A model generated the notes under the pieces. The model was not told where the DNA came from, ran no database searches, and was given only the letters and a program-made list of their open reading frames with translations. A DNA stretch of 38,153 bases from a virus. Shown here piece after piece: positions 8,893-38,153 of the stretch. A program made the translations under genes and the position numbers. The stretch lies in UHGV virus genome UHGV-0081093, one strand, 5' to 3'. The first letter of the stretch is position 1. Every line of letters starts with the position of its first letter.

Positions 8893-9126
8893 ATGCGCAT
8901 TGAAATAATGATCGATAAAGAGCAGAAGATTAGCCAGTCTACCCTGGACGCCCTTGAATCCGAGCTTTACCGCAATCTGCGCCCCCTGTATCCCAAAACG
9001 GTAATTCGCATTCGCAAAGGTAGCTCTAACGGTGTGGAACTGACCGGACTGCAACTGGACGAAGAAAGGAAGCAAGTGATGAAAATTATGCAGAAGGTGT
9101 GGGAAGACGACAGCTGGCTGCATTAA
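8893..9126 (+). CDS. DinI-like protein (possible Tum-type antirepressor)
   Basis: MRIEIMIDKEQ...LYRNLRPLYPKTVIRIRKGSSNGVELTGLQLDEERKQVMKIMQKVWEDDSWL resembles DinI (MRIEVTIAK..., ...ETWESADDW). GAGGTG RBS before ATG 8893. Confidence 0.65.
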   Translation: MRIEIMIDKEQKISQSTLDALESELYRNLRPLYPKTVIRIRKGSSNGVELTGLQLDEERKQVMKIMQKVWEDDSWLH

Positions 9127-9156
9127 GAAACGTTGCCCCCAAGAGGATTCATTCTG

Positions 9157-9327
9157 ATGGGGGACTATTTTGGGCAACGAGTGAAACGAGGCGTTAGTTG
9201 GACGGCCATTTTGATAAGTGATCGTCCGCTTTTTGTTCTGAGTTCAAGCGATGGATTTAACACACTGGTTGAAGCAGAAGTATCTAAGTTCAATTTATAT
9301 TATTTGAAGGGCACTGGTCTGATGTAG
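9157..9327 (+). CDS. Hypothetical small protein
   Basis: Short ORF with an AAGAGG RBS; weak support. Confidence 0.25.
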   Translation: MGDYFGQRVKRGVSWTAILISDRPLFVLSSSDGFNTLVEAEVSKFNLYYLKGTGLM

Positions 9328-9413
9328 TACGATTTTTGCCGGAGATGGCATGTTCTATATTGATCTCATCCATATAATGATTGGTATTATTAGCTTAGTT
9401 TAAAGAGGATTGA

Positions 9414-10991
9414 ATGGATATCAACTATGTTGTTTCAAAAATGGAGTTCGTAGATGATCTTATTAATGCAGGTTCATTTGATTCTGCCTATAAAAATGTA
9501 AAGGATATTCTTAACGGTATCGATGAGATAAATACAATCAAAGAAAATAGAATAATTATATTATCTAATTTGGCCGGAAATCTTATTGATATCGGAAGTT
9601 TTAGTAATGTAAAAAATATAGCGGAGGAAGGCTTAAATATCTTTATAAACAATAAAAATGAATTTCTGACTATAATGAAAGAATCCTTATATTACTATAA
9701 CTTGGCAAATGGAATGAGCGCAGTTCTTGATTTTAATCCTAATGACAATGCAGATATTGATAGTTTCATTAAGCTGAATGATGTAAAAAATAATTACTGG
9801 AAAGCGTTTAAACTTTCACAAGAAGATGGATGGGTGCCCCCTGATTTAATAGTTAATCTAGCTAATGTATTAAAAAAACAATATCGTATATCTGAATCAA
9901 TGGATTATTATGAACAAGCAATATCTATTGATAACTCAATTCCTCAGGCATGGGTAAACAGATCTGAGGCATTAGAATTGCTTAATGAATTATCTACAAC
10001 ATATACATATAAAATGATTAAAGAAGTTATTCGAGGTTATGAGTGTGCAATAAAGTCAGGGAAATGTTTTCCTTCATGGAAGGTTGCTCTTCAAAGAAAA
10101 ATAAAGTACAACGAAAGTATATTGAGTGAATCATGTGTATATGGCATAGAGGATATAAGTACAGATGAAAGGCTCACGCAGGAGGAGTATGATACTTTAT
10201 CAAACTACCAGAGGTTTTGTATAGATAATAATCTAATGTTGTCTGATCATTCGCTATATTGCAATTGTTATGCGTCATCTAAAGATAATATAACTATTGC
10301 TACCACCGAGGAAGGTGTGTTTGGTGATTTTATAGTGCCAATGGAAATGGTGTTAAATAGACTTAAAGCTGAGTATTCCTTAGCACGAAAAATGTTTTTT
10401 GAATATAAGGTTGATAGTGAGTTTTTTGATGAGGATTCGGAGGTATGTTATTCTGAATTGTATAATGGAGAAATATTGTATGAAAATGTTGAGAAGTTAA
10501 GGGTTGCATTTAGAGCTTGCTTTGGTATCTTGGATAAAATAGCAGTTGCTCTGTGTCAATTATTTGATTTAAAACCAGATAGAGGACATATATACTTTCA
10601 TAACTTCTGGCGGATTAGTGATGAAAAAAGAAAGCTTAAAATAAACAAAATAAATAATAAAGGATTGCTGGGTTTGTTTAGTATTGCTATGGATTTGAAT
10701 GATAAAAATGGTGAGCTTGCTTTTTTTAAAGAATGGAGGAATGATTTAGAACATAAACTGTTAGTTATTCACGAGAAAGACATGTTAGTTGATTTATATA
10801 ATTCTTATGGGTTTTTTGATGAGGTGAGGTTTGTTGAGAAAGAAAAGTTTGAGAAACAGCTCTTACAACTCATGAAAATTGTGAGATCAGCCGTTATTCT
10901 TTTTGTGTTTACCATACGTATAGAGGGGAAAAAAAGTATTCCTAAAGATATGTTGACCATTAAAAATACCATCGAGAGAAAAGTATTGTAG
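9414..10991 (+). CDS. AT-rich cargo protein with TPR-like repeats and a C-terminal HEPN-like RNDLEH motif; candidate abortive-infection / defence effector
   Basis: 525-aa ORF in a block of very low GC with N/K/I-rich codon usage, unlike the rest of the prophage; AGAGGA RBS. TPR-like segments (e.g. YYEQAISIDNSIPQAWVNRSEALELL) and RNDLEH (Rx4H) near residue 445. Located between gene A and the cos-like site. Confidence 0.7.
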   Translation: MDINYVVSKMEFVDDLINAGSFDSAYKNVKDILNGIDEINTIKENRIIILSNLAGNLIDIGSFSNVKNIAEEGLNIFINNKNEFLTIMKESLYYYNLANGMSAVLDFNPNDNADIDSFIKLNDVKNNYWKAFKLSQEDGWVPPDLIVNLANVLKKQYRISESMDYYEQAISIDNSIPQAWVNRSEALELLNELSTTYTYKMIKEVIRGYECAIKSGKCFPSWKVALQRKIKYNESILSESCVYGIEDISTDERLTQEEYDTLSNYQRFCIDNNLMLSDHSLYCNCYASSKDNITIATTEEGVFGDFIVPMEMVLNRLKAEYSLARKMFFEYKVDSEFFDEDSEVCYSELYNGEILYENVEKLRVAFRACFGILDKIAVALCQLFDLKPDRGHIYFHNFWRISDEKRKLKINKINNKGLLGLFSIAMDLNDKNGELAFFKEWRNDLEHKLLVIHEKDMLVDLYNSYGFFDEVRFVEKEKFEKQLLQLMKIVRSAVILFVFTIRIEGKKSIPKDMLTIKNTIERKVL

Positions 10992-11313
10992 TATATTTTC
11001 ATCGAGCGATGAAACGGTCTGTTTTTCTTTATAGTTTTGTCATAAAAAAGAGATTTCCTGCTTAAAATTTGGCTATTACAGAGCAACTATGTATGTTCCT
11101 CGCTCACAGTAGAGCTTCATCTTTGTAAGTCTGTATGTTTCGTTTTTCAAGTGGTCATTCAGATACGGACTTTCACTTCTCTTAGACAGTGCATGACTAT
11201 GCTGCATGAAATCGCATGATCGTTTAAGGATCGTTTTTGCTAAGGCTCGCCAGAACTAGCGGGCTTTTACGTAGAACATGCAGGTGCATGAAAACCACTA
11301 CATAAAGCGGGCA

Positions 11314-11332
11314 GGCGTGGCGGGGATACGAG
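11314..11332. other. Putative cos site core (GGCGTGGCGGGGATACGAG)
   Basis: First 13 nt match the cohesive-end sequence of P2/186 as I remember it (GGCG[A/T]GGCGGGGAAAGCA[C/T]). Lies in a 474-bp non-coding gap upstream of the Q-P packaging genes. Confidence 0.4.
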
Positions 11333-11465
11333 CGCGCGCTGTGAGCTTAAAAAGCTAAATTCTAGTTTGCTATGATTCTCAAAAATTGCGTGTTAAGCAA
11401 AATAGCTACGGTTATACTGTGTACAGAAAGAACTATCAAAATTAACAATAAAGGGAGGGGATGAG

Positions 11466-12485
11466 ATGACTGCAACTACACATCAGAAGCCTCTTAATGC
11501 TTTCTTTCGCCGAGTAGGGGCGCTTGATAGGCGTTTAGCCGAAGGGCTATCAAAGTTACTTCCTGATTGGTGGGATGATTCGCTTAATCATTCAGCGAGC
11601 ATTAGCCAGCAGGTAATTTTAGGTTTGGCAAAGTTTGCGAATCTGGATTTGGCGACGGTCGTCAATCCTACTGCTGAATTGAGATTCAATGAGTCAGTAA
11701 GAAAGTATAAACACGCGGCAAATAAATCGGTCGAAGAGTTGCAGGCTGCTACGGCTGTGGTTGATGGTATGGCAAAAATCGCAGCTTCAGTTGCTAAAAG
11801 ACCATATATGGGGCTTTCATCTGCTCGTGATATACGTGAGATAATCCTTTCTCAAGGAAAGCCTTGGGTAGATTTCCTGTCACTCTTAGAATTTGCTTGG
11901 TCTGCGGGTATCCCTGTTTTGTATATGACGGATATTCCTGCCAGGAAAAAGATGGATGCAGTTGCTATAAAGGTTTCTGATCGCCCAGTTATTGCTCTTA
12001 CAAAAAAACATAAACATGCAAGTGGTATTTTGTTTAGTTTGGCGCACGAGTTAGGGCATATCGCTTGCGGCCATCTTGAGGATAACTCATTGTTAATTGA
12101 TGAAAAAATCAATGAAGATGATGTCGAAAATCCTCAAGAAATAGAAGCCAATGCTTACGCAATAGAACTCCTTAATGGCAGACCAGATGCTGCATTCCAT
12201 AGCAATGGTTGGATTTCTGCTGAAGTGCTGGCTTCGGAAGCTTTGCGTATAGGGCGTCACAATAAGGTTGATCCTGGCCACGTAGCTTTAAATTACGCCA
12301 AAACAATGGGGCGTACGCATACAGGGAATTTTTTCCCTGTATGCGGAAGTGCATTAAACATACTTTATCCTCGTTTGGATTGGATGGAGCATGCTGCCGC
12401 AATTTTTCTTGAATATGTTGATGAAGAGAAGGTATCGGAAGACAAGTTTGAAATGTTATGCAGAATGAACAACATTGAGGTGTAA
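11466..12485 (+). CDS. Metallopeptidase-domain protein (HEXXH; ImmA/IrrE / M78-like), gene 1 of cargo operon
   Basis: 339 aa with AGGGAGGGG RBS. Contains LAHELGHIACGHLED, i.e. an HEXXH zinc-peptidase motif in a context typical of ImmA/IrrE-type domains. Confidence 0.7.
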   Translation: MTATTHQKPLNAFFRRVGALDRRLAEGLSKLLPDWWDDSLNHSASISQQVILGLAKFANLDLATVVNPTAELRFNESVRKYKHAANKSVEELQAATAVVDGMAKIAASVAKRPYMGLSSARDIREIILSQGKPWVDFLSLLEFAWSAGIPVLYMTDIPARKKMDAVAIKVSDRPVIALTKKHKHASGILFSLAHELGHIACGHLEDNSLLIDEKINEDDVENPQEIEANAYAIELLNGRPDAAFHSNGWISAEVLASEALRIGRHNKVDPGHVALNYAKTMGRTHTGNFFPVCGSALNILYPRLDWMEHAAAIFLEYVDEEKVSEDKFEMLCRMNNIEV

Positions 12486-12490
12486 CGCCA

Positions 12491-13129
12491 GTGGCTGTAT
12501 TACTTGATAATGATGTAGTACTGAAATTGGCTCAACTTGATCTGCTTGCTGATGGTTGCAAATTACTTACAAGTAAGTACGGCCAACTTTATGTTTTAGA
12601 TACGCTTTTTTATCAGTTACGAGGTAAGTCAGCTCTTCGTCGTTATGGTGCTGAGGCATTGGAACGCGTACAGCAATGCCTGTCAGAGAGGGCATTTTTG
12701 CCGTTTGAAGAGTTAATCACGGATCAACGTTTGATTGAATTACAGAACAATTTCGAGAATCTTGATGAAGGCGAGATGCGTTTGCTTCAAGGTTTAATAA
12801 ATAATCATGATCTGCTTCTATCAGGCGATAAACGCTTTTTGAAGGCAATTGCTGAGACTGGATTTATAGAGGAAGCATCTCTCAATAATCGTTTTGTATG
12901 TTTAGAACAAGTGGTTTGTTTTCTTATCAATGAGTTATCTCTTGATCATGTCAACGCAAAAGCCTCGATTGCTTTTCAGGGTGAATGTAGAGTTGATAGT
13001 GCTTTAAGAACATGTATTGGTTACGGGCGTACGCATGAGCACGTTATGGAAGGGATATTTCACCAACTTCGTGGGCTACCTGAAACTCTTCTATCAATAG
13101 AGGTGCATTGGAGTTTGACTCAACCTTAA
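12491..13129 (+). CDS. Hypothetical protein, gene 2 of cargo operon (possible PIN-like nuclease domain)
   Basis: GTG start 5 nt after the gene-1 stop. N-terminus VAVLLDNDVVLKLAQLDLL resembles the first strand/Asp of PIN domains, with further acidic positions (NLDEGE, SGDKRF) at spacings compatible with a PIN fold. Inference only. Confidence 0.6.
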   Translation: MAVLLDNDVVLKLAQLDLLADGCKLLTSKYGQLYVLDTLFYQLRGKSALRRYGAEALERVQQCLSERAFLPFEELITDQRLIELQNNFENLDEGEMRLLQGLINNHDLLLSGDKRFLKAIAETGFIEEASLNNRFVCLEQVVCFLINELSLDHVNAKASIAFQGECRVDSALRTCIGYGRTHEHVMEGIFHQLRGLPETLLSIEVHWSLTQP

Positions 13130-21939: not shown

Positions 21940-21957
21940 TGTATCAGCACTGATACA
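21940..21957. promoter_or_regulatory. Ogr-type late promoter activator site (TGT-N12-ACA), candidate PV
   Basis: Perfect palindrome TGTATCAGCACTGATACA immediately upstream of the V-W-J-I-H-G operon. Confidence 0.6.
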
Positions 21958-22938: not shown

Positions 22939-23833
22939 CCTTTCGCAGTTGCCTGCGCCGCAGATTGTCGATGTGCCGGACTTTGAGACGTTGCTTGCCG
23001 AACGCAAGGCCGAATTTGTTGCGCTTCATCCGAAAGATGAGCAGGAAGCCGTGATCCGCACGCTGGAACTGGAATCTGAACCCGTCACCAAATTGCTGCA
23101 GGAGAACGCTTACCGTGAGTTGCTTCTGCGCCAGCGCATTAACGAAGCCGCGCAGGCGGTGATGGTGGCTTACGCGATGGGCGGCGATCTTGACCAGCTC
23201 GCTGCCAACTACAACGTGAAACGCCTGACGGTGACGCCTGCTGATAATGACGCTGTGCCACCCGTTGCGGCTGTGATGGAAAGCGATGAAGCGTTACGCC
23301 TGCGTGTGCCCGCAGCCTTTGAAGGGCTTTCTGTTGCGGGGCCAACTGCCGCTTATGAATTTCATGCCCGAAGCGCCGACGGTCGGGTGGCGGATGCCAG
23401 TGCAACCAGTCCGGCACCTGCAGAGGTGGTACTGACTGTCCTGAGCCGTGAAGGCGACGGAACAGCAGAAAAAGATTTGCTGGATGTGGTGGAGAAAGCC
23501 CTGAACAGTGAGAATGTCCGCCCGGTGGCTGACCGTCTGACGGTTCGCAGCGCAGAAATCATCCCGTACCGTGTGGAAGCCACCATTTTTCTTTATCCGG
23601 GACCGGAAGCAGAGCCGGTAATGGCAGCGGCAAAAGTCAGCCTGCAGAGGTACATCGCCAGTCAGACGCGGCTCGGTCGGGATATTCGCCGTAGTGCTAT
23701 TTTTGCCGCGCTGCATGTTGAGGGTGTTCAACGTGTGGAACTGGCTTCTCCGCTGGCGGATGTGGTTCTGAACAAAACGCAGGCGGCATCATGTACGCAG
23801 TGGAGCGTGACCAACGGAGGAACGGATGAATAG
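22925..23833 (+). CDS. J: Baseplate protein (P2 gpJ-like)
   Basis: Start taken at MAVIDLSQLP (ATG 22925, GGAGCAGAGA RBS), about 302 aa; the track ORF from 22886 is an extension. Confidence 0.8.
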   Translation: MAVIDLSQLPAPQIVDVPDFETLLAERKAEFVALHPKDEQEAVIRTLELESEPVTKLLQENAYRELLLRQRINEAAQAVMVAYAMGGDLDQLAANYNVKRLTVTPADNDAVPPVAAVMESDEALRLRVPAAFEGLSVAGPTAAYEFHARSADGRVADASATSPAPAEVVLTVLSREGDGTAEKDLLDVVEKALNSENVRPVADRLTVRSAEIIPYRVEATIFLYPGPEAEPVMAAAKVSLQRYIASQTRLGRDIRRSAIFAALHVEGVQRVELASPLADVVLNKTQAASCTQWSVTNGGTDE

Positions 23834-24431
23834 TCTGCTGCCACCGGGTTCAACTTCACTGGAGCGCCGACTGGCGCAGACCTGTAGCGGGATTTCTGAT
23901 CTGCAGGTGCCGCTGCGTGACTTGTGGAATCCGGCAACCTGTCCGATCAGTTTCCTGCCTTATCTCGCCTGGGCGTTCTCTGTGGATCGCTGGGACGAGG
24001 GCTGGACAGAAAGCGTCAAGCGCCAGGTGGTGAAGGATGCTTTTTATATTCATCAGCATAAAGGGACCACCAGTGCCGTGCGGCGGGTGGTGGAGCCGTT
24101 CGGCTTTCTGATCCGCATTATTGAGTGGTGGCAGATCGGAGAGGCACCGGGCACGTTTCGTCTGGATATCGGCGTGCAGGACCAGGGCATCACTGAAGAT
24201 ACCTATCTGGAACTTGAGCGACTGATAAGCGATGCCAAACCATGTAGCCGTCACATGATCGGCATGTCCATCAACCTGCAGACCAGCGGCCCGCATTGGG
24301 TGGGAGCCGCCAGCTATCTTGGCGAAGAAATCACGATCTATCCGTATATCAACGAAACAATTATTTCCGGCGGCACCGCGCATGAAGGCGGGGCGGTCCA
24401 TGTTATTGACACAATGAGAGTGAATCCATGA
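23826..24431 (+). CDS. I: Baseplate protein (P2 gpI-like)
   Basis: 201 aa, position between J and the tail fibre gene. Confidence 0.75.
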   Translation: MNSLLPPGSTSLERRLAQTCSGISDLQVPLRDLWNPATCPISFLPYLAWAFSVDRWDEGWTESVKRQVVKDAFYIHQHKGTTSAVRRVVEPFGFLIRIIEWWQIGEAPGTFRLDIGVQDQGITEDTYLELERLISDAKPCSRHMIGMSINLQTSGPHWVGAASYLGEEITIYPYINETIISGGTAHEGGAVHVIDTMRVNP

Positions 24432-25825
24432 GCACAAAATTTTATACCCTGCTGACGGATATTGGCGCGGCGAAACTTGCCAGCGCCGCCGCGCTCGGTG
24501 TGCCGCTAAAAATTACCCATATGGCGGTGGGCGATGGCGGCGGAGCATTGCCGACGCCGGACGCAAAGCAGACTGCACTGGTAAATGAGAAACGCCGGGC
24601 TGCGCTGAATATGCTTTATATCGACCCGCAGAACAGCAGCCAGATTATTGCTGAACAGGTGATCCCTGAAAACGAGGGCGGTTGGTGGATACGTGAAGTG
24701 GGCCTGTTTGATGAGTCCGGGGCATTGATTGCCGTGGGCAACTGCCCGGAAAGCTATAAGCCGCAACTGGCTGAAGGCAGCGGGCGCACCCAGACCGTGC
24801 GCATGGTGCTGATTACCAGCAGTACGGACAATATCACCCTGAAAATCGACCCTGCTGTAGTGCTGGCAACCCGTAAATACGTGGATGATGAAGTCCTGGA
24901 ATTAAAGCTGTATGTGGATGACCAGATGAGAAACCACATTGCCGCACAAGATCCTCATACCCAGTATGCGCAGAAACATAATCCGACATTTACCGGAGAA
25001 CCAAAAGCGCCGACGCCTGCAGCAGGAAATAACACCACGCGGATTGCGACCACTGAGTTTGTTCAGGCCGCTATTACTGCTCTGATTAACGGTGCGCCAG
25101 CCACGCTGGACACACTGAAAGAAATTGCCGCAGCCATTAACAATGACCCGAAATTCAGTACCACCATTAACAATGCGCTGGCACTAAAAGCGCCGCTGTC
25201 GAGTCCGGCACTCACCGGAACGCCAACAGCACCTACTGCGGCGCAGTCGGTCAACAATACACAGATTGCCACTACGGCTTTTGTGAAATCGGCGATTGCA
25301 GGAATGGTGGGTTCTGCACCTGCGGCACTGGATACACTGAACGAACTGGCGGCGGCACTGGGGAATGATCCGAACTTTGCCACGACAATGCTTAATGCGC
25401 TGGCAGGTAAACAACCGCTGGACAATACGCTTACCAATTTGAGTGGAAAGGATGTAGCTGGTCTTCTCACATACCTTGGTTTGGGAGAAGCGGCAAAACG
25501 GAATGTGGGAACAGGGGAAAATCAGATACCAGATATGTCTGCATTTCCATCTGGCAAAAACTGGTTTCAGTTACCAAGTGGTCATATTGTCCAAATGTTT
25601 TCGATGAATGTTTATGGGGCGGACACTAACGGAACTACAGGTAATTTCCCTATTGCATTTCCTTCAGGCGCACTGGCTGTTAGTGCCTTATGGTCAGATG
25701 GCACATTAACGGCTGCTCCGACCTTTAAACTTATGGGGTACACGACAACAAGGACATCAGTAACCTTAAAAGTATCAACCGGAAATGGTTTGTATGGAAC
25801 TATGATTATCGCAATAGGAAGATAA
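24428..25825 (+). CDS. H: Tail fibre protein (P2 gpH-like); constant N-part plus currently expressed variable C-part
   Basis: 465 aa with repeated ...TTEFV.AAI..L.NGAPA.LDTL.E.AAA..NDP.F.TT..NALA.K.P... blocks typical of tail fibres. A crossover site lies at codons ~346-354. Confidence 0.85.
   Translation: MSTKFYTLLTDIGAAKLASAAALGVPLKITHMAVGDGGGALPTPDAKQTALVNEKRRAALNMLYIDPQNSSQIIAEQVIPENEGGWWIREVGLFDESGALIAVGNCPESYKPQLAEGSGRTQTVRMVLITSSTDNITLKIDPAVVLATRKYVDDEVLELKLYVDDQMRNHIAAQDPHTQYAQKHNPTFTGEPKAPTPAAGNNTTRIATTEFVQAAITALINGAPATLDTLKEIAAAINNDPKFSTTINNALALKAPLSSPALTGTPTAPTAAQSVNNTQIATTAFVKSAIAGMVGSAPAALDTLNELAAALGNDPNFATTMLNALAGKQPLDNTLTNLSGKDVAGLLTYLGLGEAAKRNVGTGENQIPDMSAFPSGKNWFQLPSGHIVQMFSMNVYGADTNGTTGNFPIAFPSGALAVSALWSDGTLTAAPTFKLMGYTTTRTSVTLKVSTGNGLYGTMIIAIGR
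25464..25489. other. Invertase crossover site (left), 26 bp TTCTCACATACCTTGGTTTGGGAGAA
   Basis: Imperfect dyad resembling hix/gix sites (TTCTTGAAAACCAAGGTTTTTGATAA). Its partner at 27312..27337 is in inverted orientation and shares the 14-bp core TTCTCCCAAACCAA. Confidence 0.6.
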
Positions 25826-25826
25826 T

Positions 25827-26270
25827 ATGAATCAATATATTTATTCCCCTTCGGAAAATGCATTTTATGCTGTTAATTTAAAAAATACTTATGAAGTAAA
25901 TGGAACATGGCCCGCTGACGCATTAGATATTCCTGATGACATTTCTGTAAAATATATGGCGGAACCGCCACAAGGGAAAATCCGAGTTGCAGGGGAAAAT
26001 GGTTTTCCCACATGGGCTGAAATACCTCCACCATCACATGAGGAACTTATTGAACAGGCCGAATCAGAGAGGCAATTATTGATTAACCATGCCAACGAAT
26101 ACATGAACAGTAGGCAATGGTCTGGTAAAGCAGCTATTGGTCGCCTGAAGGGGGACGAGCTGGCGCAATATAATTTGTGGCTGGATTATCTGGACGCACT
26201 GGAACTGGTCGATACTTCCGGGGCGCCAGATATTGAATGGCCTACGCCTCCGGCAGTTCAGGCCAGATGA
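25827..26270 (+). CDS. G: Tail fibre assembly protein (gpG/Tfa-like), current orientation
   Basis: 147 aa; C-terminal ...DYLDALELVDTSGAPDIEWPTPP Tfa signature. Confidence 0.75.
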   Translation: MNQYIYSPSENAFYAVNLKNTYEVNGTWPADALDIPDDISVKYMAEPPQGKIRVAGENGFPTWAEIPPPSHEELIEQAESERQLLINHANEYMNSRQWSGKAAIGRLKGDELAQYNLWLDYLDALELVDTSGAPDIEWPTPPAVQAR

Positions 26271-26844
26271 CATCCGGCGCTGTGCTGGTATTTGTTGCCG
26301 TCACCGCGTCAATGTAATCCAGCACAGCGTTAAGCCGGGTTGTTTCTGCCTGCATCAACTTCCGTCCGGCCTGTAATTTCAGCTGAATCAGACTGATGGA
26401 AGCCATTGCAGCATCAATCAGTGACTGACGCTGTGCTTCTGCCGCGTCTACTGCGGCGCTATGCTGTGCCTCAGTATCGGTCACCCATTTCTCACCATCC
26501 CATTTATCGTATGGCGTTAATGGGGCGATAGTGGTTGTATTTTCGGGGTAATCACCCGGTGCTGTGATTTCTTTGGCATCTCCCGTTTCGGTGTTATAGA
26601 CGATTTCACCGCGATGGTCTGGCACATATTCCCATGAATTAAAATCTACAGAACGGCAAATTGTATAACCAGCCTTATATGTACCAGGAGCGTCTAAACA
26701 GGAATATGCTGGAATACCGACACCCACTGCAAGATATTCAGTTGATGCAGAAATATATTCCCGAGTTTCACCATCGTAGTTATAAACGGTAATATTCCCC
26801 GCCTTCGTGGCAATAAACTCGCTATTTAATACTGCGTTATCCAT
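26242..26844 (-). CDS. Alternative tail fibre assembly protein (G'), inverted
   Basis: 200 aa on the opposite strand; C-terminal ...DYIDAVTATNTSTAPDVIWPELP Tfa signature. Confidence 0.7.
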   Translation of the reverse strand: MDNAVLNSEFIATKAGNITVYNYDGETREYISASTEYLAVGVGIPAYSCLDAPGTYKAGYTICRSVDFNSWEYVPDHRGEIVYNTETGDAKEITAPGDYPENTTTIAPLTPYDKWDGEKWVTDTEAQHSAAVDAAEAQRQSLIDAAMASISLIQLKLQAGRKLMQAETTRLNAVLDYIDAVTATNTSTAPDVIWPELPEA

Positions 26845-27365
26845 TATGCAGCCCTCACGATAAAGTTAAATGCAATATTTCGTGGACGGGTCTCACTCCC
26901 ACCAGTATTACCGATACTCCCTCGTGAATGAAGTGTCGGTGATGGGATCAGACTCCCTCCTGTATTTGTGGCATCAAGTCCCCGTCCTTGTGTGTATGTT
27001 TTTTTGAAAATCGTAGCCAGTTCCCATTCATCTTTTGTGTCGTAACCATCATTGGCAACAACAATATGGCGGTGTTTTTCCAGCATCCCAGCCTGAAGGC
27101 TCAATAAAGCACGTCCAGCATCAATACCACGCCCGTCATCCCAGCCACGAATAAACTCACCACGTAAATCTGGCAATTTATTTGTCGGGTAAGCCTTTGC
27201 CAGTTCCGGGTATTCTTCAGCAGAAAAAGCTGCTCCGTTGCATTTCAGCCAGCCTGTTGGCGGAGTGGCTGAAGGCCACGGAACAGGGACACCAACAGGT
27301 AATGCAGAGCCTTCTCCCAAACCAACGTTTAAGAAAATGCAGCGATTACGACTAACTGGCATCAT
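26844..27365 (-). CDS. Alternative tail fibre variable C-terminal segment (H'), inverted and currently unfused
   Basis: Opposite-strand ORF whose 5' end contains the ...NVGLGEG... crossover junction homologous to H ...YLGLGEA...; inversion would fuse it to the constant part of H. Confidence 0.6.
   Translation of the reverse strand: MMPVSRNRCIFLNVGLGEGSALPVGVPVPWPSATPPTGWLKCNGAAFSAEEYPELAKAYPTNKLPDLRGEFIRGWDDGRGIDAGRALLSLQAGMLEKHRHIVVANDGYDTKDEWELATIFKKTYTQGRGLDATNTGGSLIPSPTLHSRGSIGNTGGSETRPRNIAFNFIVRAA
27312..27337. other. Invertase crossover site (right), 26 bp TTCTCCCAAACCAACGTTTAAGAAAA
   Basis: Inverted copy of the core of the 25464..25489 site, just upstream of the invertase gene. Confidence 0.55.
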
Positions 27366-27392
27366 CCCCGGTTTTTATTCAGGGGATTGATC

Positions 27393-27959
27393 ATGCTTAT
27401 TGGCTATGTACGCGTGTCAACAAATGACCAGAACACCGATTTGCAACGTAATGCACTGAACTGCGCGGGATGTGAGCGGATTTTTGAGGACAAAATCAGT
27501 GGCACTAAGTCCGACAGACCGGGGCTTAAAAAACTGCTCAGGACACTATCGGCAGGTGACACACTGGTTGTCTGGAAGCTGGACAGGTTGGGGCGCAGTA
27601 TGCGGCATCTTGTTACGCTGATAGAAGAGTTGCGCCAGCGCGGCGTGAATTTCCGAAGCCTGACTGACAGTATTGATACCAGTACCCCAATGGGCCGTTT
27701 CTTTTTTCATGTCATGGGTGCCCTGGCTGAAATGGAACGCGAACTGATAGTTGAACGTACCAGGGCAGGGCTGGCTGCAGCTCGTGCTAAAGGCAGAGTA
27801 GGTGGACGCCGTCCTAAGTTGACTACCGAACAGTGGGCACAGATTGGGCGTTTACTCGAGGCCGGAGAATCAAGACAGCGTATTGCACTGATTTTTGATG
27901 TAGGCGTTTCTACCATTTATAGAAAATTTCCGGCAAATAAGAGCAATGAATCTCCCTGA
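27393..27959 (+). CDS. Serine site-specific DNA invertase (Gin/Pin/Hin family)
   Basis: MLIGYVRVSTNDQNTDLQRNAL...VVWKLDRLGRSM...GRFFFHVMGALAEMERELI... is near-identical in its motifs to Mu Gin as I recall it; catalytic Ser in YVRVST. ATG 27393 with AGGGGA RBS. Confidence 0.9.
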   Translation: MLIGYVRVSTNDQNTDLQRNALNCAGCERIFEDKISGTKSDRPGLKKLLRTLSAGDTLVVWKLDRLGRSMRHLVTLIEELRQRGVNFRSLTDSIDTSTPMGRFFFHVMGALAEMERELIVERTRAGLAAARAKGRVGGRRPKLTTEQWAQIGRLLEAGESRQRIALIFDVGVSTIYRKFPANKSNESP

Positions 27960-28007: not shown

Positions 28008-28025
28008 TGTGTGAATAACGGTACA
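28008..28025. promoter_or_regulatory. Ogr-type late promoter activator site (TGT-N12-ACA), candidate PF
   Basis: TGTGTGAATAACGGTACA about 77 bp upstream of the FI start, with a CAGGAGG RBS downstream. Confidence 0.55.
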
Positions 28026-30290: not shown

Positions 30291-33200
30291 TAATAACCTG
30301 CGCCTGCAGGTCATTCTTAATGCGGTTGACAAACTCACCCGCCCATTCCGTGCTGCACAGGCCAGTTCGAAAGAGCTGGCTGGCGCAATCAGAAACTCCC
30401 GTGACGCATTAAAGCAACTCAATCAGGCGGGTAACAGCCTGGAAAAATTTCGCAAGCTGCAGGCCGATAACAAAAAGTTAGGCGACAGGCTGAACTATGC
30501 CAGACAGAAGGCAAATTTGCTTAGTTCTGAGCTGGAAGCGATGGAACAACCATCACAAAGGCATCTTGTGGCTTTAGGTCGGCAAACGCTGGCAGTCCAA
30601 CGCCTGGAAGAACAACAAAAATATTTGCAGAAGCAAACGGCGCTTGTGCGTGCAGAACTGTACCGGGCGGGAATTTCTGCGAAAGATGATGCGGGAGCAA
30701 CTGCCCGTTTAGCCCGTGAAACATCACGTTATAACCAGGAACTTTCGAAACAAGAGGCGCGGCTGAAGCGACTGGGGGAAGCTCAGCGCAGGATGAATGC
30801 GGCGCGTGCCAGTTATGCCCGTTCGCTGGAGGTGCGTGATCGTATTGCAGGTGCCGGAGCCACCACCACGGCTGCAGGGCTGGCAATGGGCGCACCAGTG
30901 ATGGCGGCAGTAAAAAGCTATACCAGCATGGAAGATGCCATGAAAGGTGTGGCAAAGCAGGTCAATGGTCTGCGTGACGATAATGGCAACCGCACCGCGC
31001 GTTTTTACGAAATGCAGGATGCCATCAAGGGTGCCAGCGAACAGTTGCCGATGGAAAACGGTGCTGTGGACTTTGCCGCACTGGTTGAAGGTGGTGCGCG
31101 CATGAACGTCGCAAATCCTGACGACAGCTGGGAAGACCAGAAACGTGATCTGCTGGCCTTCGCCAGCACGGCAGCAAAGGCGGCAACAGCCTTTGAGCTG
31201 CCAGCGGATGAACTGTCAGAAAGTCTGGGGAAAATCGCCCAGCTCTACAAAATCCCTACCCGCAATATTGAACAGCTCGGTGATGCGCTGAACTATCTGG
31301 ATGATAACGCCATGTCGAAAGGGGCAGACATCATTGATGTCATGCAACGCCTGGGCGGTGTGGCTGATCGTCTGGATTATCGTAAAGCGGCGGCACTGGG
31401 TTCCACCTTTCTGACACTGGGCGCTGCGCCGGAGGTTGCAGCCAGTGCAGCAAACGCGATGGTGCGTGAATTGTCCATTGCCACCATGCAAAGCAAGAGT
31501 TTCTTTGAAGGGATGAATCTGCTGAAACTCAATCCTGAAGTGATTGAAAAGCAGATGACGAAGGATGCGATGGGAACTATCCAGCGTGTGCTGGAGAAGG
31601 TGAACGCACTGCCGCAGGACAAGCGTCTGTCTGCCATGACCATGTTGTTTGGTAAAGAGTTTGGTGATGACGCGGCGAAACTGGCAAACAACCTTCCGGA
31701 ACTGCAGCGCCAGCTAAAACTGACAGCGGGCAATGATGCGCTCGGTTCCATGCAGAAAGAATCCGACATCAACAAAGACTCACTTTCTGCTCAGTGGTTG
31801 CTGGTCAAAACCGGAGCGCAGAACACCTTCAGCAGCCTGGGCGAAACGCTGCGCCAGCCGCTGATGGATATTCTGTACACGGTGAAAAGCATCACGGGGG
31901 CGTTGCGCCGCTGGGTGGAAGCTAACCCGGAACTGACAGGCACACTGATGAAAGTAGCGGCTGTTGTGGCTGCGGTTACCGTAGGCCTCGGCACCTTAGC
32001 GGTGGCGCTGGCTGCAGTGCTGGGGCCGCTGGCAGTCATCCGTCTGGGATTCTCTGTGCTGGGTATCAAAACGTTACCTTCCGTTACGGCAGCAGTAACA
32101 CGAACCAGCAGCGCGTTGTCCTGGTTAGCTGGCGCTCCACTGGCACTGCTGCGACGCGGGCTTGCTTCATCGGGCAACGCAGCGGGTTTACTTACTGCGC
32201 CGTTGTCGTCTTTGCGCCGCACGGCATCACTGACGGGGAATGTCCTGAAAACTGTAGCAGGTGTGCCGGTTGCACTGTTGCGGTCTGGATTATCCGGTTT
32301 ACGTGCTGTTGCTGTGATGTTTATGAATCCACTGGCAGCACTACGCGGTGGACTGGCTGCCGCAGGCGCGGTGCTGCGAGTACTGGCATCCGGTCCGCTG
32401 GCGATGCTGCGCGTTGCTCTGTATGCCATATCTGGTCTGTTAGGTGCTCTGCTCAGTCCGATAGGTCTTGTGGTTACTGCACTGGCGGGCGTGGCGCTGG
32501 TTGTCTGGAAATACTGGCAACCCATCACCGCATTTCTCGCTGGTGTGGTGGAAGGATTCAAAGCGGCGGCAGGTCCCATCAGTGCAGCATTCGAACCACT
32601 TAAGCCTGTGTTTCAGTGGATTGGCGACAAAGTGCAGGCGTTGTGGGGCTGGTTTACTGATCTGCTGACGCCCGTTAAGTCGACCTCTGCCGAACTGCAG
32701 AGCGCAGCGGCAATGGGGCGACGATTCGGGGAGGCACTGGCGGAAGGGCTGAATATGGTCATGCATCCGCTGGACTCCCTGAAATCCGGCGTTTCCTGGT
32801 TGCTGGAGAAACTCGGCATTGTCAGTAAAGAGGCTGCAAAGGCGAAACTGCCGGAAAGCGTGACGCGTCAGCAACCTGCGACGGTGAATGCAGACGGTAA
32901 AGTGATGATGCCATCGGGTGGTTTTCCATCATGGGGATATGGCTTTGCGGGGATGTATGACAGCGGCGGCTATATCCCGCGCGGGCAGTTTGGCATCGTC
33001 GGTGAAAACGGGCCGGAAATTGTTAACGGCCCGGCAAATGTGACCAGCCGGAGAAATACAGCTGCACTGGCTGCCGTTGTTGCCGGAATGATGGGCGTTG
33101 CTGCCGCGCCTGCAGAGCTTCCACCGTTGCATCCTTTGGCACTTCCCGCGAAAGGCGGCGAAGCGATGGTGAGTCGTGCAGCCACTGTGCCGCCCGTTCA

Positions 33201-34939: not shown

Positions 34940-35029
34940 TTCTTCGCAATGGAGAACTTTTAAGTTTGCAAAATGGAATAATACGGTATCATTGTTGTGA
35001 ATTTAGCAAAAATGGGGAGAACTCGAAAA

Positions 35030-35248
35030 ATGATGATTTGCCCACTGTGTGGAAGTGCCGCCCATACTCGCAGCAGTTTTCAGGTATCTTCATTGACCAA
35101 AGAGCGTTATAACCAGTGCCAGAACATTAACTGCAGCCATACTTTTGTTACCCATGAAACTTTTGTTCGTTCGATTGCAACACCAAAAGAGTCGAATCCA
35201 GTTCAGCCGCATCCAATGAAATCAGGACAGGTGGCGCTCTCTCTTTGA
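35030..35248 (+). CDS. ogr: Late gene transcriptional activator (Ogr/Delta zinc-finger family)
   Basis: MMICPLCGSAAHTRSS...YNQCQNINCSHTF has the same CxxC...CxxxxC spacing as P2 Ogr (MFHCPLCQHAAHARTS...YHQCQNVNCSATF). GGGGAGA RBS; the track ORF from 34997 is an extension. Confidence 0.85.
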   Translation: MMICPLCGSAAHTRSSFQVSSLTKERYNQCQNINCSHTFVTHETFVRSIATPKESNPVQPHPMKSGQVALSL

Positions 35249-35313
35249 CGCTGCCGCCATTTTGTCGCCATCGTTAAAAAACAGTGCTTCTAACATCATG
35301 ATTTTAAACATCT

Positions 35314-35339
35314 TAAATTTCAGGCAACAAAAAACCCAT
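35314..35339. repeat. attR core (26-bp direct repeat)
   Basis: Identical to 591..616. The following hairpin (CCCATCAACC ... GGTTGATGGG, 35335..35371) preceded by an A-run probably acts as the ybjL terminator on the minus strand. Confidence 0.8.
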
Positions 35340-35483
35340 CAACCTTGAACCGAAATGGCGGGGTTGATGGGCTCCACAAAATGGGGACATCAAAGAAAAG
35401 CAGTGGCACTAATTAAGACTGATGCCCTGCGGAAAAGTTCTGCGGTTGTGCAAAAAAATTTCATTTTCAGGGCAACTTCAGTT

Positions 35484-37169
35484 TTATCCTAATCCTGGCC
35501 ATACCATGACGATGATTGTCCCTGCCAGCGTCAGCAGGACGTTGGCGATTGCATAGGTGCCCGCATAGCCCAGCGCCGGGATGTTACTGCGAGCTGTATC
35601 ACTGATGATCTCCATTGCCGGCGCGCAGGTGCGTGCGCCCATCATTGCGCCGAACAACAGTGCGCGGTTCATTCGCAATACATAAGCACCGAACAAGAAA
35701 CAGATAACCACTGGCACAAGACTGACAATCAATCCGGCAATCAACATCTGACCGCCAATCGCGCCTAGGCCGTTATTAATACCGCTACCGGCGCTCAGAC
35801 CAACGCCTGCCATAAACACCATTAAGCCGAACTCTTTCACCATGCTTAATGCACCCTGCGGAATGTAACCGAAGGTCGGGTGGTTAGCGCGCATAAATCC
35901 CAGCATAATTCCGGCGAATAACAACCCGGCAGCGTTCCCCATGCCGAAACTGAATGTGCTGAACTGGAAGGTGATCATCCCGATCATCAGCCCAATAACA
36001 AAGAAGGCGCAGAATGCCAGCAAGTCAGTGACCTGGCTGTGAATCGAGATAAAGCCGATGCGATCGGCGATGGTTTTTACGCGACGGGCATCGCCGCTGA
36101 CTTGTAAAACGTCACCTTTGTTAAGCACGACGTTGTCATCTATCGGCATCTCAATCTGGCTACGAATGACGCGGTTAAGGAAGCAACCGTGATCGGTCAA
36201 CTTCAGTTGTGCGAGACGTTTGCCCACGGCGTTATGGTTTTTAACGACCACTTCTTCAGTGACGATACGCATGTCGAGAAGGTCACGATCGAAAACTTCT
36301 TTGCCGTTACGGAAGCTGGGATCGAGTCGTGCGTGGGCGTCGGGATAGCCTACCAACGCTATTTCATCGCCCATTTGTAGCACAGCATCACCGTCTGGAT
36401 TCGCCAGAATCCCGTTACGTCGAATACGTTCAATGTAGCAGCCAGTTTGTCGATAAATACCCAGTTCACGCAGATTTTTGCCGTCGGTCCAGGCCACCAG
36501 CTCCGGGCCGACGCGGTAGGCGCGGATCACCGGTAAATAAACCTTACGGTTGGCATCAGTGTCCAGGCCACGTTCGCGGGCGATTTGCTGGGCGCTGGTC
36601 TGTAAGTCCTGATGCTGCAATTTCGGCAAGTAACGCGCACCAACAATCAAACTCACCAGACCGATTAAATAGGTTAAGGCATACCCGAGGCTCAGATTAT
36701 CCAGTGCCAGTGAGAGCTGCCTGCTTTCCATGCCGGAATGACGCAGTGTATCGCCAGCACCGACCAGAACCGGTGTCGACGTCATAGAGCCAGCTAACAT
36801 ACCGGCCGTCAGGCCAATATCCCAGCCAAACAGCTTACCTAACCCTAAGGCGATCACCAGCGCACTGCCAACCATCACCAGTGCTAACATTAGGTAATTT
36901 TTCCCATCGCGAAAAAAAATGGAAAAAAAGTTCGGTCCGGCTTCGACCCCGACGCAGAAAATAAACAGCATAAAGCCAAGATTAAGCGCGTCGGTGTTAA
37001 TGCTGAAATGTTGTTGGCCTAATAACAGCGATACGACTAAAACGCCAATGGAATTACCCAGTTGGATCGAACCAAGTCGTAATTTCCCGAGACATAGCCC
37101 AAGCGCGAGGACCACAAATAATAACAGAATGTAATTCCCATTTAACAATTCGGCGACGTTTATATTCAC
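35484..37169 (-). CDS. ybjL: Putative transport protein YbjL (two membrane domains flanking paired cytoplasmic TrkA-C-like domains)
   Basis: 561-aa polytopic membrane protein; matches E. coli YbjL by size, sequence and its position next to ybjM/grxA. Confidence 0.85.
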
Positions 37170-37438
37170 GGAGGCTAACTTCTTGTTTACTAGTAAGCTG
37201 TTGAAAGAAATGGTAATTTACGATAATGTTTTTTACCAGAATTCAGGGCGCAGATTCATTCAGCGCACCTAAAAGATAGTAAAGTAACAATATATTTTAC
37301 TAGTGTAATCACATTAGGTATCAACGGCTATATGAATTGCGTTGGCCTATATTAGCATGGAATGCGAAGCGGCTTTATCTTACTGAACGCCACACTGGCG
37401 AAAAATGTGTTCGATAGACGCAGTGTCAGGAGGAACGA

Positions 37439-37816
37439 GTGAAACATAAACAACGTTGGGCGGGGGCAATCTGCTGTTTTGTCCTCTTCATTGTGGTGTG
37501 TCTTTTTCTGGCGACGCACATGAAAGGCGCTTTTCGGGCTGCCGGGCATCCTGAAATCGGTTTGCTATTTTTCATTCTTCCTGGTGCAGTTGCCAGCTTC
37601 TTTTCACATCGTAGAGAAGTCCTGAAACCTCTGTTTGGCGCAATGCTGGCGGCACCCTGTTCGATGCTCATTATGCGGCTGTTTTTTTCACCGACGCGCT
37701 CATTCTGGCAAGAGCTGGCATGGTTATTAAGTGCGGTGTTCTGGTGTGCGCTGGGGGCATTGTGTTTCTTATTTATCAGTAGTTTGTTTAAACCACAGCA
37801 CAGAAAAAATCAATAA
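37439..37816 (+). CDS. ybjM: Inner membrane protein YbjM
   Basis: 125-aa hydrophobic protein between ybjL and grxA. Confidence 0.75.
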   Translation: MKHKQRWAGAICCFVLFIVVCLFLATHMKGAFRAAGHPEIGLLFFILPGAVASFFSHRREVLKPLFGAMLAAPCSMLIMRLFFSPTRSFWQELAWLLSAVFWCALGALCFLFISSLFKPQHRKNQ

Positions 37817-37837
37817 AGCCCTCAACGCGAGGGCTTG
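37816..37837. terminator. Bidirectional rho-independent terminator between ybjM and grxA
   Basis: Hairpin AGCCCTC-AACGC-GAGGGCT followed by TT on the plus strand and preceded by an A-run (T-run on the minus strand). Confidence 0.55.
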
Positions 37838-37845
37838 TCAGACGA

Positions 37846-38103
37846 TCAGGCGTCCAGATTCTCTTTCGCCCATGCAGCAAAATCGGTATAGCCGCCGATA
37901 TGTTGCTGATCGACAAAAATCTGCGGCACGGTTTCTACGGGTTTACCTGCCTTTTGTTGTAGATCTTCTTTAGTGATCCCTTCCGCACGAATATCTACAT
38001 ACTGATACTGGAAATCATCGCGTTCATTGCTCAATTTCTCAGCCAGATCTTTTGCACGCACACAGTAAGGGCAACCCGGACGACCAAAAATAACGGTTTG
38101 CAT
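37846..38103 (-). CDS. grxA: Glutaredoxin 1
   Basis: MQTVIFGRPGCPYCVRAKDLAEK... with the CPYC active site, 85 aa from the internal Met of the track ORF; matches E. coli GrxA. Confidence 0.9.
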   Translation of the reverse strand: MQTVIFGRPGCPYCVRAKDLAEKLSNERDDFQYQYVDIRAEGITKEDLQQKAGKPVETVPQIFVDQQHIGGYTDFAAWAKENLDA

Positions 38104-38153
38104 TATTTCTCTCCTCATAGATTTATGCCTGTAATGATCACGCTAAAATGTAT

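Follow-up and report, generated by a model that had tools for sequence, protein, structure and literature searches.

A predicted two-state, invertase-driven tail-fibre switch in the late tail operon of a P2-like Escherichia coli prophage

The virus genome UHGV-0081093, a stretch of 38,153 nucleotides that is referred to here in its full length as the window, carries a P2-like prophage of Escherichia coli in whose late tail operon the tail-fibre gene H is followed by a second, inverted fibre end and a serine DNA invertase. We interpret this module as a two-state, invertase-driven switch of tail-fibre receptor specificity that belongs to the Din family, and assign this reading a probability of roughly 0.93. 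It is carried by the anatomy of the module, by the in-frame fusion that results when the segment is turned round, by an intact invertase with the signature of its family, by the core identity of the crossover sites to the proven sites of e14, and by the occurrence of both orientations in nature. An earlier note on this DNA, made from the letters and a list of open reading frames (ORFs), had proposed an invertible tail-fibre segment with its invertase at positions 25464-27959, and all of the elements (ORFs, Pfam domains and sites) were found where it had placed them.

Architecture of the invertible segment

The module comprises a constant fibre part, two alternative variable parts, each with a chaperone gene of its own, and the invertase gene (Table 1). 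The constant 5' part of H (Hc) is not included in the invertible segment, and its transcription starts from the upstream promoter of the late V operon. At present it is joined to Hv, which is predicted to be a gp53-like C-terminal receptor-binding tip. The adjoining chaperone gene, tfa/G, encodes a protein identical to WP_001077783.1, which is annotated in the loci of the TUM13066 and PE144 prophages. On the opposite strand lie the alternative chaperone gene tfa'/G' and the alternative variable part H'v. In the present orientation tfa/G would be expressed and tfa'/G' silent, and H'v is predicted to be without a promoter. The two chaperone genes converge and overlap tail to tail by 29 nt (26242-26270), exactly like tfaP and tfaE of e14, and the conserved C-terminal motif of both chaperones (LDYLDA and LDYIDA) gives the inverted repeat I10.

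The segment is bounded by two 26-bp sites in inverted orientation. The reverse complement of the right site reads TTTTCTTAAACG-TT-GGTTTGGGAGAA and 21 of its 26 positions agree with the left site. The two sites share the central dinucleotide and the inner half-sites, and differ in the outer halves. A 15-mer is common to both sites (25476-25490 and 27311-27325). With TT and AA as central dinucleotides on the plus strand, the two sites can be religated to each other only in the inverted configuration. Such a pair of inverted, imperfectly palindromic 26-bp sites with an identical central dinucleotide is a mark of the Din family. In the frame of H the left site corresponds to codons L346-E354 (LLTYLGLGE). 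The crossover dinucleotide forms bases 2 and 3 of the Leu350 codon, and hence GLGE opens both variable parts. The earlier note had put the sites at the GLGE junction of H and H', and this holds: the crossover falls within the Leu350 codon and the flip is in frame.

The bare inverted repeat (27 nt, 81%) was rejected as evidence, since several pairs of similar length and quality arise by chance within the same 6.5 kb. Din sites, among them the hix and gix sites, share a half-site resembling TTATCAAAAACC. A search with this consensus, which recovers the sites of Mu, P7, e14 and Fels-2 at 1-2 mismatches, returned exactly two matches in the 38-kb window, each with one mismatch, against 0.00 expected. 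At up to 5 mismatches no third crossover site was found in the window except for a 5-mismatch chance match at 11376. The module is therefore a two-state system and not a shufflon. Segments of P2-like prophages of enteropathogenic E. coli were shown by sequencing and polymerase chain reaction (PCR) to flip in culture, one being a simple case and one a shufflon (Goldberg et al. 2014, PMC4272514). A multi-state arrangement like that of the second of these prophages was ruled out by the lack of a third site in the window.

Both orientations are found among E. coli genomes

When the segment 25476-27325 was flipped in silico, Hc read in frame into H'v, giving an uninterrupted H of 509 aa with tfa' directly after it. 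The stop codon of this flipped H overlaps the start of the second chaperone gene. In TUM13066 the annotated H has 1530 nt, equal to the predicted 509 aa.

Flipped and unflipped queries were searched against 5,426 complete E. coli genomes, 3,084 of which match some part of the query. The flipped query (3674 bp) was recovered at full length and in one ungapped piece from TUM13066 and muskdeer13-4 (99.7% identity each) and from JP538 (98.9%). The orientation of the window is present in PE144 (97.6%), a related prophage at the same chromosomal site. Where at least 80% of the query was covered, the segment stood as in the window in 79 genomes and was flipped in 107. Between the window and TUM13066 no mismatch was seen within about 340 bp of the left junction, the nearest lying about 356 bp away, and the mismatch nearest to the right junction is 59 bp off, at 27384. 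The invertase gene (27393-27959) is nucleotide-identical in these two oppositely oriented prophages. Since prophages that are 99.7% identical stand in opposite orientation, the inversion appears to be very recent. The comparison thus offers strong population-level evidence for a recent inversion, probably exactly at the predicted sites, with the crossover placed by sequence comparison no finer than the shared 15-mer. The earlier note had named a single orientation, together with a broken invertase or broken sites, as the picture that would speak against its proposal; what was found is both orientations in considerable numbers and an intact invertase.

The silent H' frame remains open for 14 codons past the crossover site, up to an ATG at 27365 (27323-27365, minus strand; MMPVSRNRCIFLNV), and stfE of e14 is alike in this respect. 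A flip would fuse this leader to Hv, and the corresponding coding sequence of 129 aa is annotated in TUM13066. A sigma-70 scan detected no promoter for the leader ORF at 27365.

The invertase has the signature of the Din family

Invertases of the Din family have an N-terminal resolvase catalytic domain with a nucleophilic serine (Ser9 in Gin, Ser10 in Hin) and a C-terminal helix-turn-helix domain, in all about 185-195 aa. The characterised members are 60-85% identical to each other, far above their identity to resolvases. The enzyme encoded in the window conforms to the family in domains and length, in identity and in the residues specific for dependence on Fis and the enhancer. It shares 85% identity with PinE of e14, 85% with the invertase of Fels-2, 77% with Cin of P7 and 74% with Gin of Mu. 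The best solved structure is that of Mu Gin (3uj3, E = 8e-93, 312 bits), whereas gamma-delta resolvase scored 122 bits. The Gin/Pin-type assignment made in the earlier note is thus supported by both identity and structure. Ser9, within VRVSTNDQ, aligns to Gin and is invariant across Fin, Pin, Cin and Gin.

Invertases that depend on Fis and the enhancer carry specific basic residues in helix B (Hin K47, K/R48 and K/R51) and a patch in helix 1 of the DNA-binding domain (Q151, R154 and L155), and this Q/R/L patch contacts Fis (McLean et al., PMC3798978). In the enzyme studied here K46, K47, R50, Q150, R153 and L154 are present (the numbering is that of Hin minus one), and K46, Q150, R153 and L154 are invariant in an alignment of five invertase sequences.

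The invertase gene is located outside the segment, and its orientation is constant. Its real start is most likely the ATG at 27393, as PGAP (Prokaryotic Genome Annotation Pipeline) annotates the identical gene in this way; the TTG at 27387, from which the ORF list begins (27387-27959), is unlikely to be the true start. Against NCBIfam the invertase and the fibre proteins had matches only below the cut-offs, and thus no specific family was assigned to them. By tblastn the invertase was found in 115 phage records, including those of Fels-2, pro483, Cartapus, 500465-1, P88 and many Klebsiella P2-like phages.

A predicted recombinational enhancer within the invertase gene

The enhancer of Din systems is a cis-acting element with two Fis sites 48 bp apart, normally located in the 5' part of the invertase gene. 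The Fis consensus, (G/T)NNYRNN(A/T)NNYRNN(C/A), is said to go back to Hubner and Arber in 1989. Near the start of the invertase gene there are two Fis-consensus 15-mers, both matching KNNYRNNWNNYRNNM, a degenerate Fis pattern with which coding constraint overlaps. The two centres are separated by exactly 48 bp, and the distance of the first 15-mer from the right site is about 97 bp. In the P7 record the cin enhancer is annotated at nt 19-86 of cin, and the homologous interval here, 27411-27478, holds both 15-mers. Between the 15-mers lie ATTTG and TAATG, the counterparts of the minor-groove contacts ATTTA and TAATG reported for Hin (PMC3798978). The region is conserved among the five invertase genes.

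Relationship to known invertible segments

The segment and its sites are most closely related to the P segment of e14 (stfP-tfaP / tfaE-stfE / pinE), which has the same gene order, including the 29-nt tfa overlap. The inner half and core of the left site agree with the e14 repeat TTGGTTTGGGAGAAGG at 15 of 16 positions, and bases 27310-27325 of the right site (CCTTCTCCCAAACCAA) agree with the right repeat of e14 at all 16. The e14 repeats are the sites at which PinE and PinQ invert the segment, as established by sequencing and quantitative PCR (PMC12529663). Nucleotide similarity to e14 (84-88%) extends over the left site, tfa', part of H'v, the right site and the invertase, with tfa' itself 88% identical to tfaE. 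H'v is 59% identical to StfE, and Hv is 31% identical to the C-terminus of StfP. While e14 is a defective lambdoid remnant with a truncated constant fibre part, the window has a full-length H of the P2 type.

In Fels-2 (Felsduovirus) the layout is identical to that of the window: J, I, H, G, G' (minus strand), H' (minus strand), invertase, FI, FII, E, E', T. The constant part of H shows 78.5% nucleotide identity to that of Fels-2. The similarity stops at 25497 and resumes at 27312; inside the segment there is no nucleotide similarity, and the variable cassettes differ. Fels-2 has the same outer half, TTCTCACATACC, in its left site, whereas the central dinucleotide is TC/GA in Fels-2 and TT/AA in the window. 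The Fels-2 invertase, STM2702, is known in the literature as Fin, reportedly the subject of a 2006 paper by Kutsukake. By its similarities to e14 and Fels-2, the module is a mosaic of the kind usual in tail fibres, with a P segment of the e14 type joined to an H gene of the P2 type.

The earlier note had likened the module to the G segment of Mu. The likeness stands for the layout, since the Mu order Sc, Sv, U, U', S'v, gin equals Hc, Hv, tfa, tfa', H'v, invertase; for the segment and its sites, however, the closest relative is the Pin system of e14 and not Mu G. As in the window, the G/Gin system of Mu and the C/Cin systems of P1 and P7 have 26-bp sites at the joint of constant and variable parts and an enhancer within the 5' end of the invertase gene. 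They differ in the length of the segment (about 3 kb in Mu and about 4 kb in P7, against 1.85 kb here), in their cassettes, which are unrelated, and in the kind of phage, Mu-like and P1-like as against P2-like. In P7, unlike in the window, cin lies on the other side of the segment relative to the constant part.

Phage P2 (Peduovirus P2) has the same gene order (V W J I H G ... FI FII E E' T U D) and late promoters of the Ogr type. According to its record, G is followed by a terminator and FI is preceded by an activator site; the interval between these two genes holds fun(Z), encoded on the opposite strand, and neither an invertase nor a second cassette nor crossover sites. This agrees with what the earlier note had said of P2. 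Between G and the TGT-N12-ACA dyad at 28008-28025, the right edge of the fun(Z) slot of P2, the window has the second cassette and the invertase, so that the module does occupy the slot that the note had suggested. According to a preprint (bioRxiv 10.1101/2024.10.15.618418), the Z/fun hotspot frequently harbours a DNA invertase, accompanied by inversion of the neighbouring genes.

Proposed mechanism and alternative explanations

In the mechanism that we infer, including its dependence on Fis, the chemistry of the reaction and the resulting difference in host range, invertase dimers would bind both 26-bp sites. Host Fis would bind the enhancer at 27415-27477, and an invertasome would form at a branch of supercoiled DNA. 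Both sites would then be cut in both strands at the central TT/AA dinucleotide with formation of serine-phosphodiester links, the subunits would rotate by 180 degrees, and after strand exchange and religation of the ends the segment 25476-27325 would be flipped. The late transcript of the orientation seen here would encode the 465-aa fibre Hc-Hv with its gp53-like tip, along with the 147-aa chaperone; that of the other orientation would encode the 509-aa Hc-H'v, with a tip of the collar/StfE type, along with the 200-aa TfaE-type chaperone. Both forms of the fibre would be expressed from the Ogr-dependent late operon, and a lysogenic population would release two kinds of virion with different receptor specificity.

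Several points weigh against this reading. No sigma-70-like promoter for the invertase was found in the interval scanned (27338-27392), and expression of the enzyme is therefore assumed. The Fis-pair pattern is very degenerate, with 4 matches against 2.45 expected per window; it was rejected as a statistical test, being uninformative, and only the homologous position counts. Moreover, the predicted Fis sites lie within codons of the catalytic motif, so that their conservation is inseparable from constraint at the protein level. For both reasons the enhancer at 27415-27477 is proposed on grounds of homology. The difference in receptor is deduced from two unrelated C-terminal tips (Gp53-like_C and Collar), each with its own chaperone, and would follow if these tips recognise different receptors. 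Differences in orientation between strains could in principle date from older events, and active switching in this very strain is presumed.

It is conceivable that the module was once active and no longer flips here, the invertase being unexpressed or the sites suboptimal, and that old events, or other host invertases of the Pin type acting in trans, account for the differences between strains. The lack of a promoter-like site directly upstream of the invertase would fit such a state, as would the outer half-sites, which are off consensus (CATACC and AAACG against AAAACC). Din invertases act in trans, and PinQ of Qin flips the e14 segment (PMC12529663). However, the same deviating outer half-sites are present in Fels-2 and e14, and the e14 segment inverts experimentally. 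The invertase is full length, retains every conserved residue and is nucleotide-identical to the gene in an oppositely oriented prophage, while prophages 99.7% identical differ in orientation and the two orientations are about equally common (79 and 107 genomes). We consider it very improbable that the switch has been lost in this way.

The module might serve the host in place of the phage or in addition to it, if one orientation, activated by the recombinase, led to a chimeric fibre fragment that is made in the lysogen and blocks adsorption of other phages. The segment is a homologue of the e14 P segment with the same sites, and for e14 the analogous StfE2 is reported to block T2 adsorption (PMC12529663). 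The same short leader ORF, starting at the ATG at 27365, is present outside the segment and would run into Hv after a flip; because this leader is conserved, a defence role is possible as an addition to the switch. However, the late promoter of H requires Ogr and is not active in lysogens, the promoter scan gave no hit for the leader ORF, and Hv shares only 31% identity with the C-terminus of StfP. The prophage also looks complete (integrase, CI, A, head, tail and lysis genes), and its primary selective role is therefore most simply virion host range. A function of the module in host defence, in place of receptor switching or alongside it, is accordingly held to be improbable. We give just as little credence to the proposal that, besides switching the fibre, the module may be an anti-phage device in the lysogen, with the leader-Hv chimera as the StfE2 analogue, and may act in trans on switching of e14, Qin or Rac in the host. 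Inversion that switches the tail-fibre tip of the virion remains the interpretation that we prefer.

Genomic context of the module

The window encodes an integrase, a CI-type repressor, replication protein A, head and lysis genes and a P2-type tail module, and the prophage looks complete. Over the first 24 kb of the window, identity to P2-type phages, for example Klebsiella phage 4LV2017, is about 95%. The P2-family domains Tail_P2_I, Phage_tail_fib, sheath domains, GPD and GPA identify the tail module as one of the P2 type, and PGAP annotation of a 99.7%-identical locus names V, W/gp25, J, I, sheath, tube, E, GpE and tape measure. The host is an E. coli chromosome, as the right flank, ogr followed by ybjL-ybjM-grxA, is 100% identical to many E. 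coli genomes. At this right prophage end (34940-38153) an ogr/Delta-like zinc-finger gene is followed by the host genes ybjL, ybjM and grxA, with 100% identity to several E. coli genomes. A scan of the window detected no tRNA gene.

Table 1. Coordinates of the tail-fibre module and of the adjacent features of the tail operon
Feature	Position	Strand	Description
I	23826-24431	+	Pfam Tail_P2_I
H tail fibre	24428-25825	+	465 aa; Pfam Phage_tail_fib N-terminus, Gp53-like_C tip
Hc, constant 5' part of H	24428..25475	+	codons 1-349 and first base of codon 350; Phage_tail_fib 2.6e-65
Left crossover site (pix/gix/hix-like, 26 bp)	25464..25489	+	TTCTCACATACC-TT-GGTTTGGGAGAA; central dinucleotide 25476-25477
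Invertible segment	25476..27325	.	1850 bp between the two central dinucleotides
Hv, variable 3' part now joined to Hc	25478..25825	+	GLGEAAKRNVG..., 115 aa; Gp53-like_C 2e-07
tfa/G, tail-fibre assembly chaperone for Hv	25827-26270	+	147 aa; Pfam Caudo_TAP 1.2e-32
tfa'/G', alternative TfaE-type chaperone	26242-26844	-	200 aa; Pfam Caudo_TAP 2e-30
H' 3' end	26844-27325	-	Pfam Collar 1.2e-15; open frame on to ATG at 27365
H'v, alternative variable part	26844..27323	-	GLGEGSALPVG..., 159 aa, tail-collar type tip
Right crossover site (26 bp)	27312..27337	+	TTCTCCCAAACC-AA-CGTTTAAGAAAA; central dinucleotide 27324-27325
Din-family serine DNA invertase	27393-27959	+	188 aa; Pfam Resolvase 2.3e-53 and HTH_7 1.5e-15
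Predicted enhancer, two Fis-consensus 15-mers	27415..27477	+	TGTCAACAAATGACC (27415-27429), GCGCGGGATGTGAGC (27463-27477)
TGT-N12-ACA dyad, Ogr-type late promoter P_F before FI	28008..28025	+	matches position of annotated activator-binding site of P2
FI sheath	28102 onward	+	Pfam sheath domains

Dyads of the form TGT-N12-ACA at 21940-21957 and 28008-28025 lie just 5' of V (22004) and FI (28102), and fit the Ogr/Delta-activated promoters P_V and P_F. As a general detector of late promoters this motif was rejected, since it occurs at chance frequency in the window (12 against 10 expected); only the positions before V and FI are meaningful.

Between the replication gene A and the portal gene Q, at the old/tin hotspot of P2, positions 9000-13129 hold cargo of low GC content (31-43%, against about 55% in the phage). 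Its three genes encode a 525-aa protein with an LA2681-like HEPN domain (PF18733, 4e-38), a 339-aa M78/IrrE-like protein with weak RmrA and PD-Lambda-2_B matches, and a 212-aa protein without a family. By these matches the cargo is a candidate anti-phage system. In the tape-measure gene, positions 30390-30852 show dense mismatches to the TUM13066 prophage, compared with only about 30 mismatches elsewhere in the 9.7-kb stretch compared; this looks like a short recombination patch.

Implications

Switching of tail-fibre tips by an invertase has been textbook knowledge since the Mu G, P1 C and e14 P segments. The module described here is already known and is not unusual for P2-like phages: the same module is found in P2-like phages that are already deposited and annotated, namely Fels-2, pro483, Cartapus and 500465-1. 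For annotation this means that fragments labelled 'phage tail protein' and 'gp53-like' beside an invertase are silent alternative 3' ends and not pseudogenes. The orientation that was assembled determines which H protein is predicted, and prediction of host range for such prophages needs to consider both tips.

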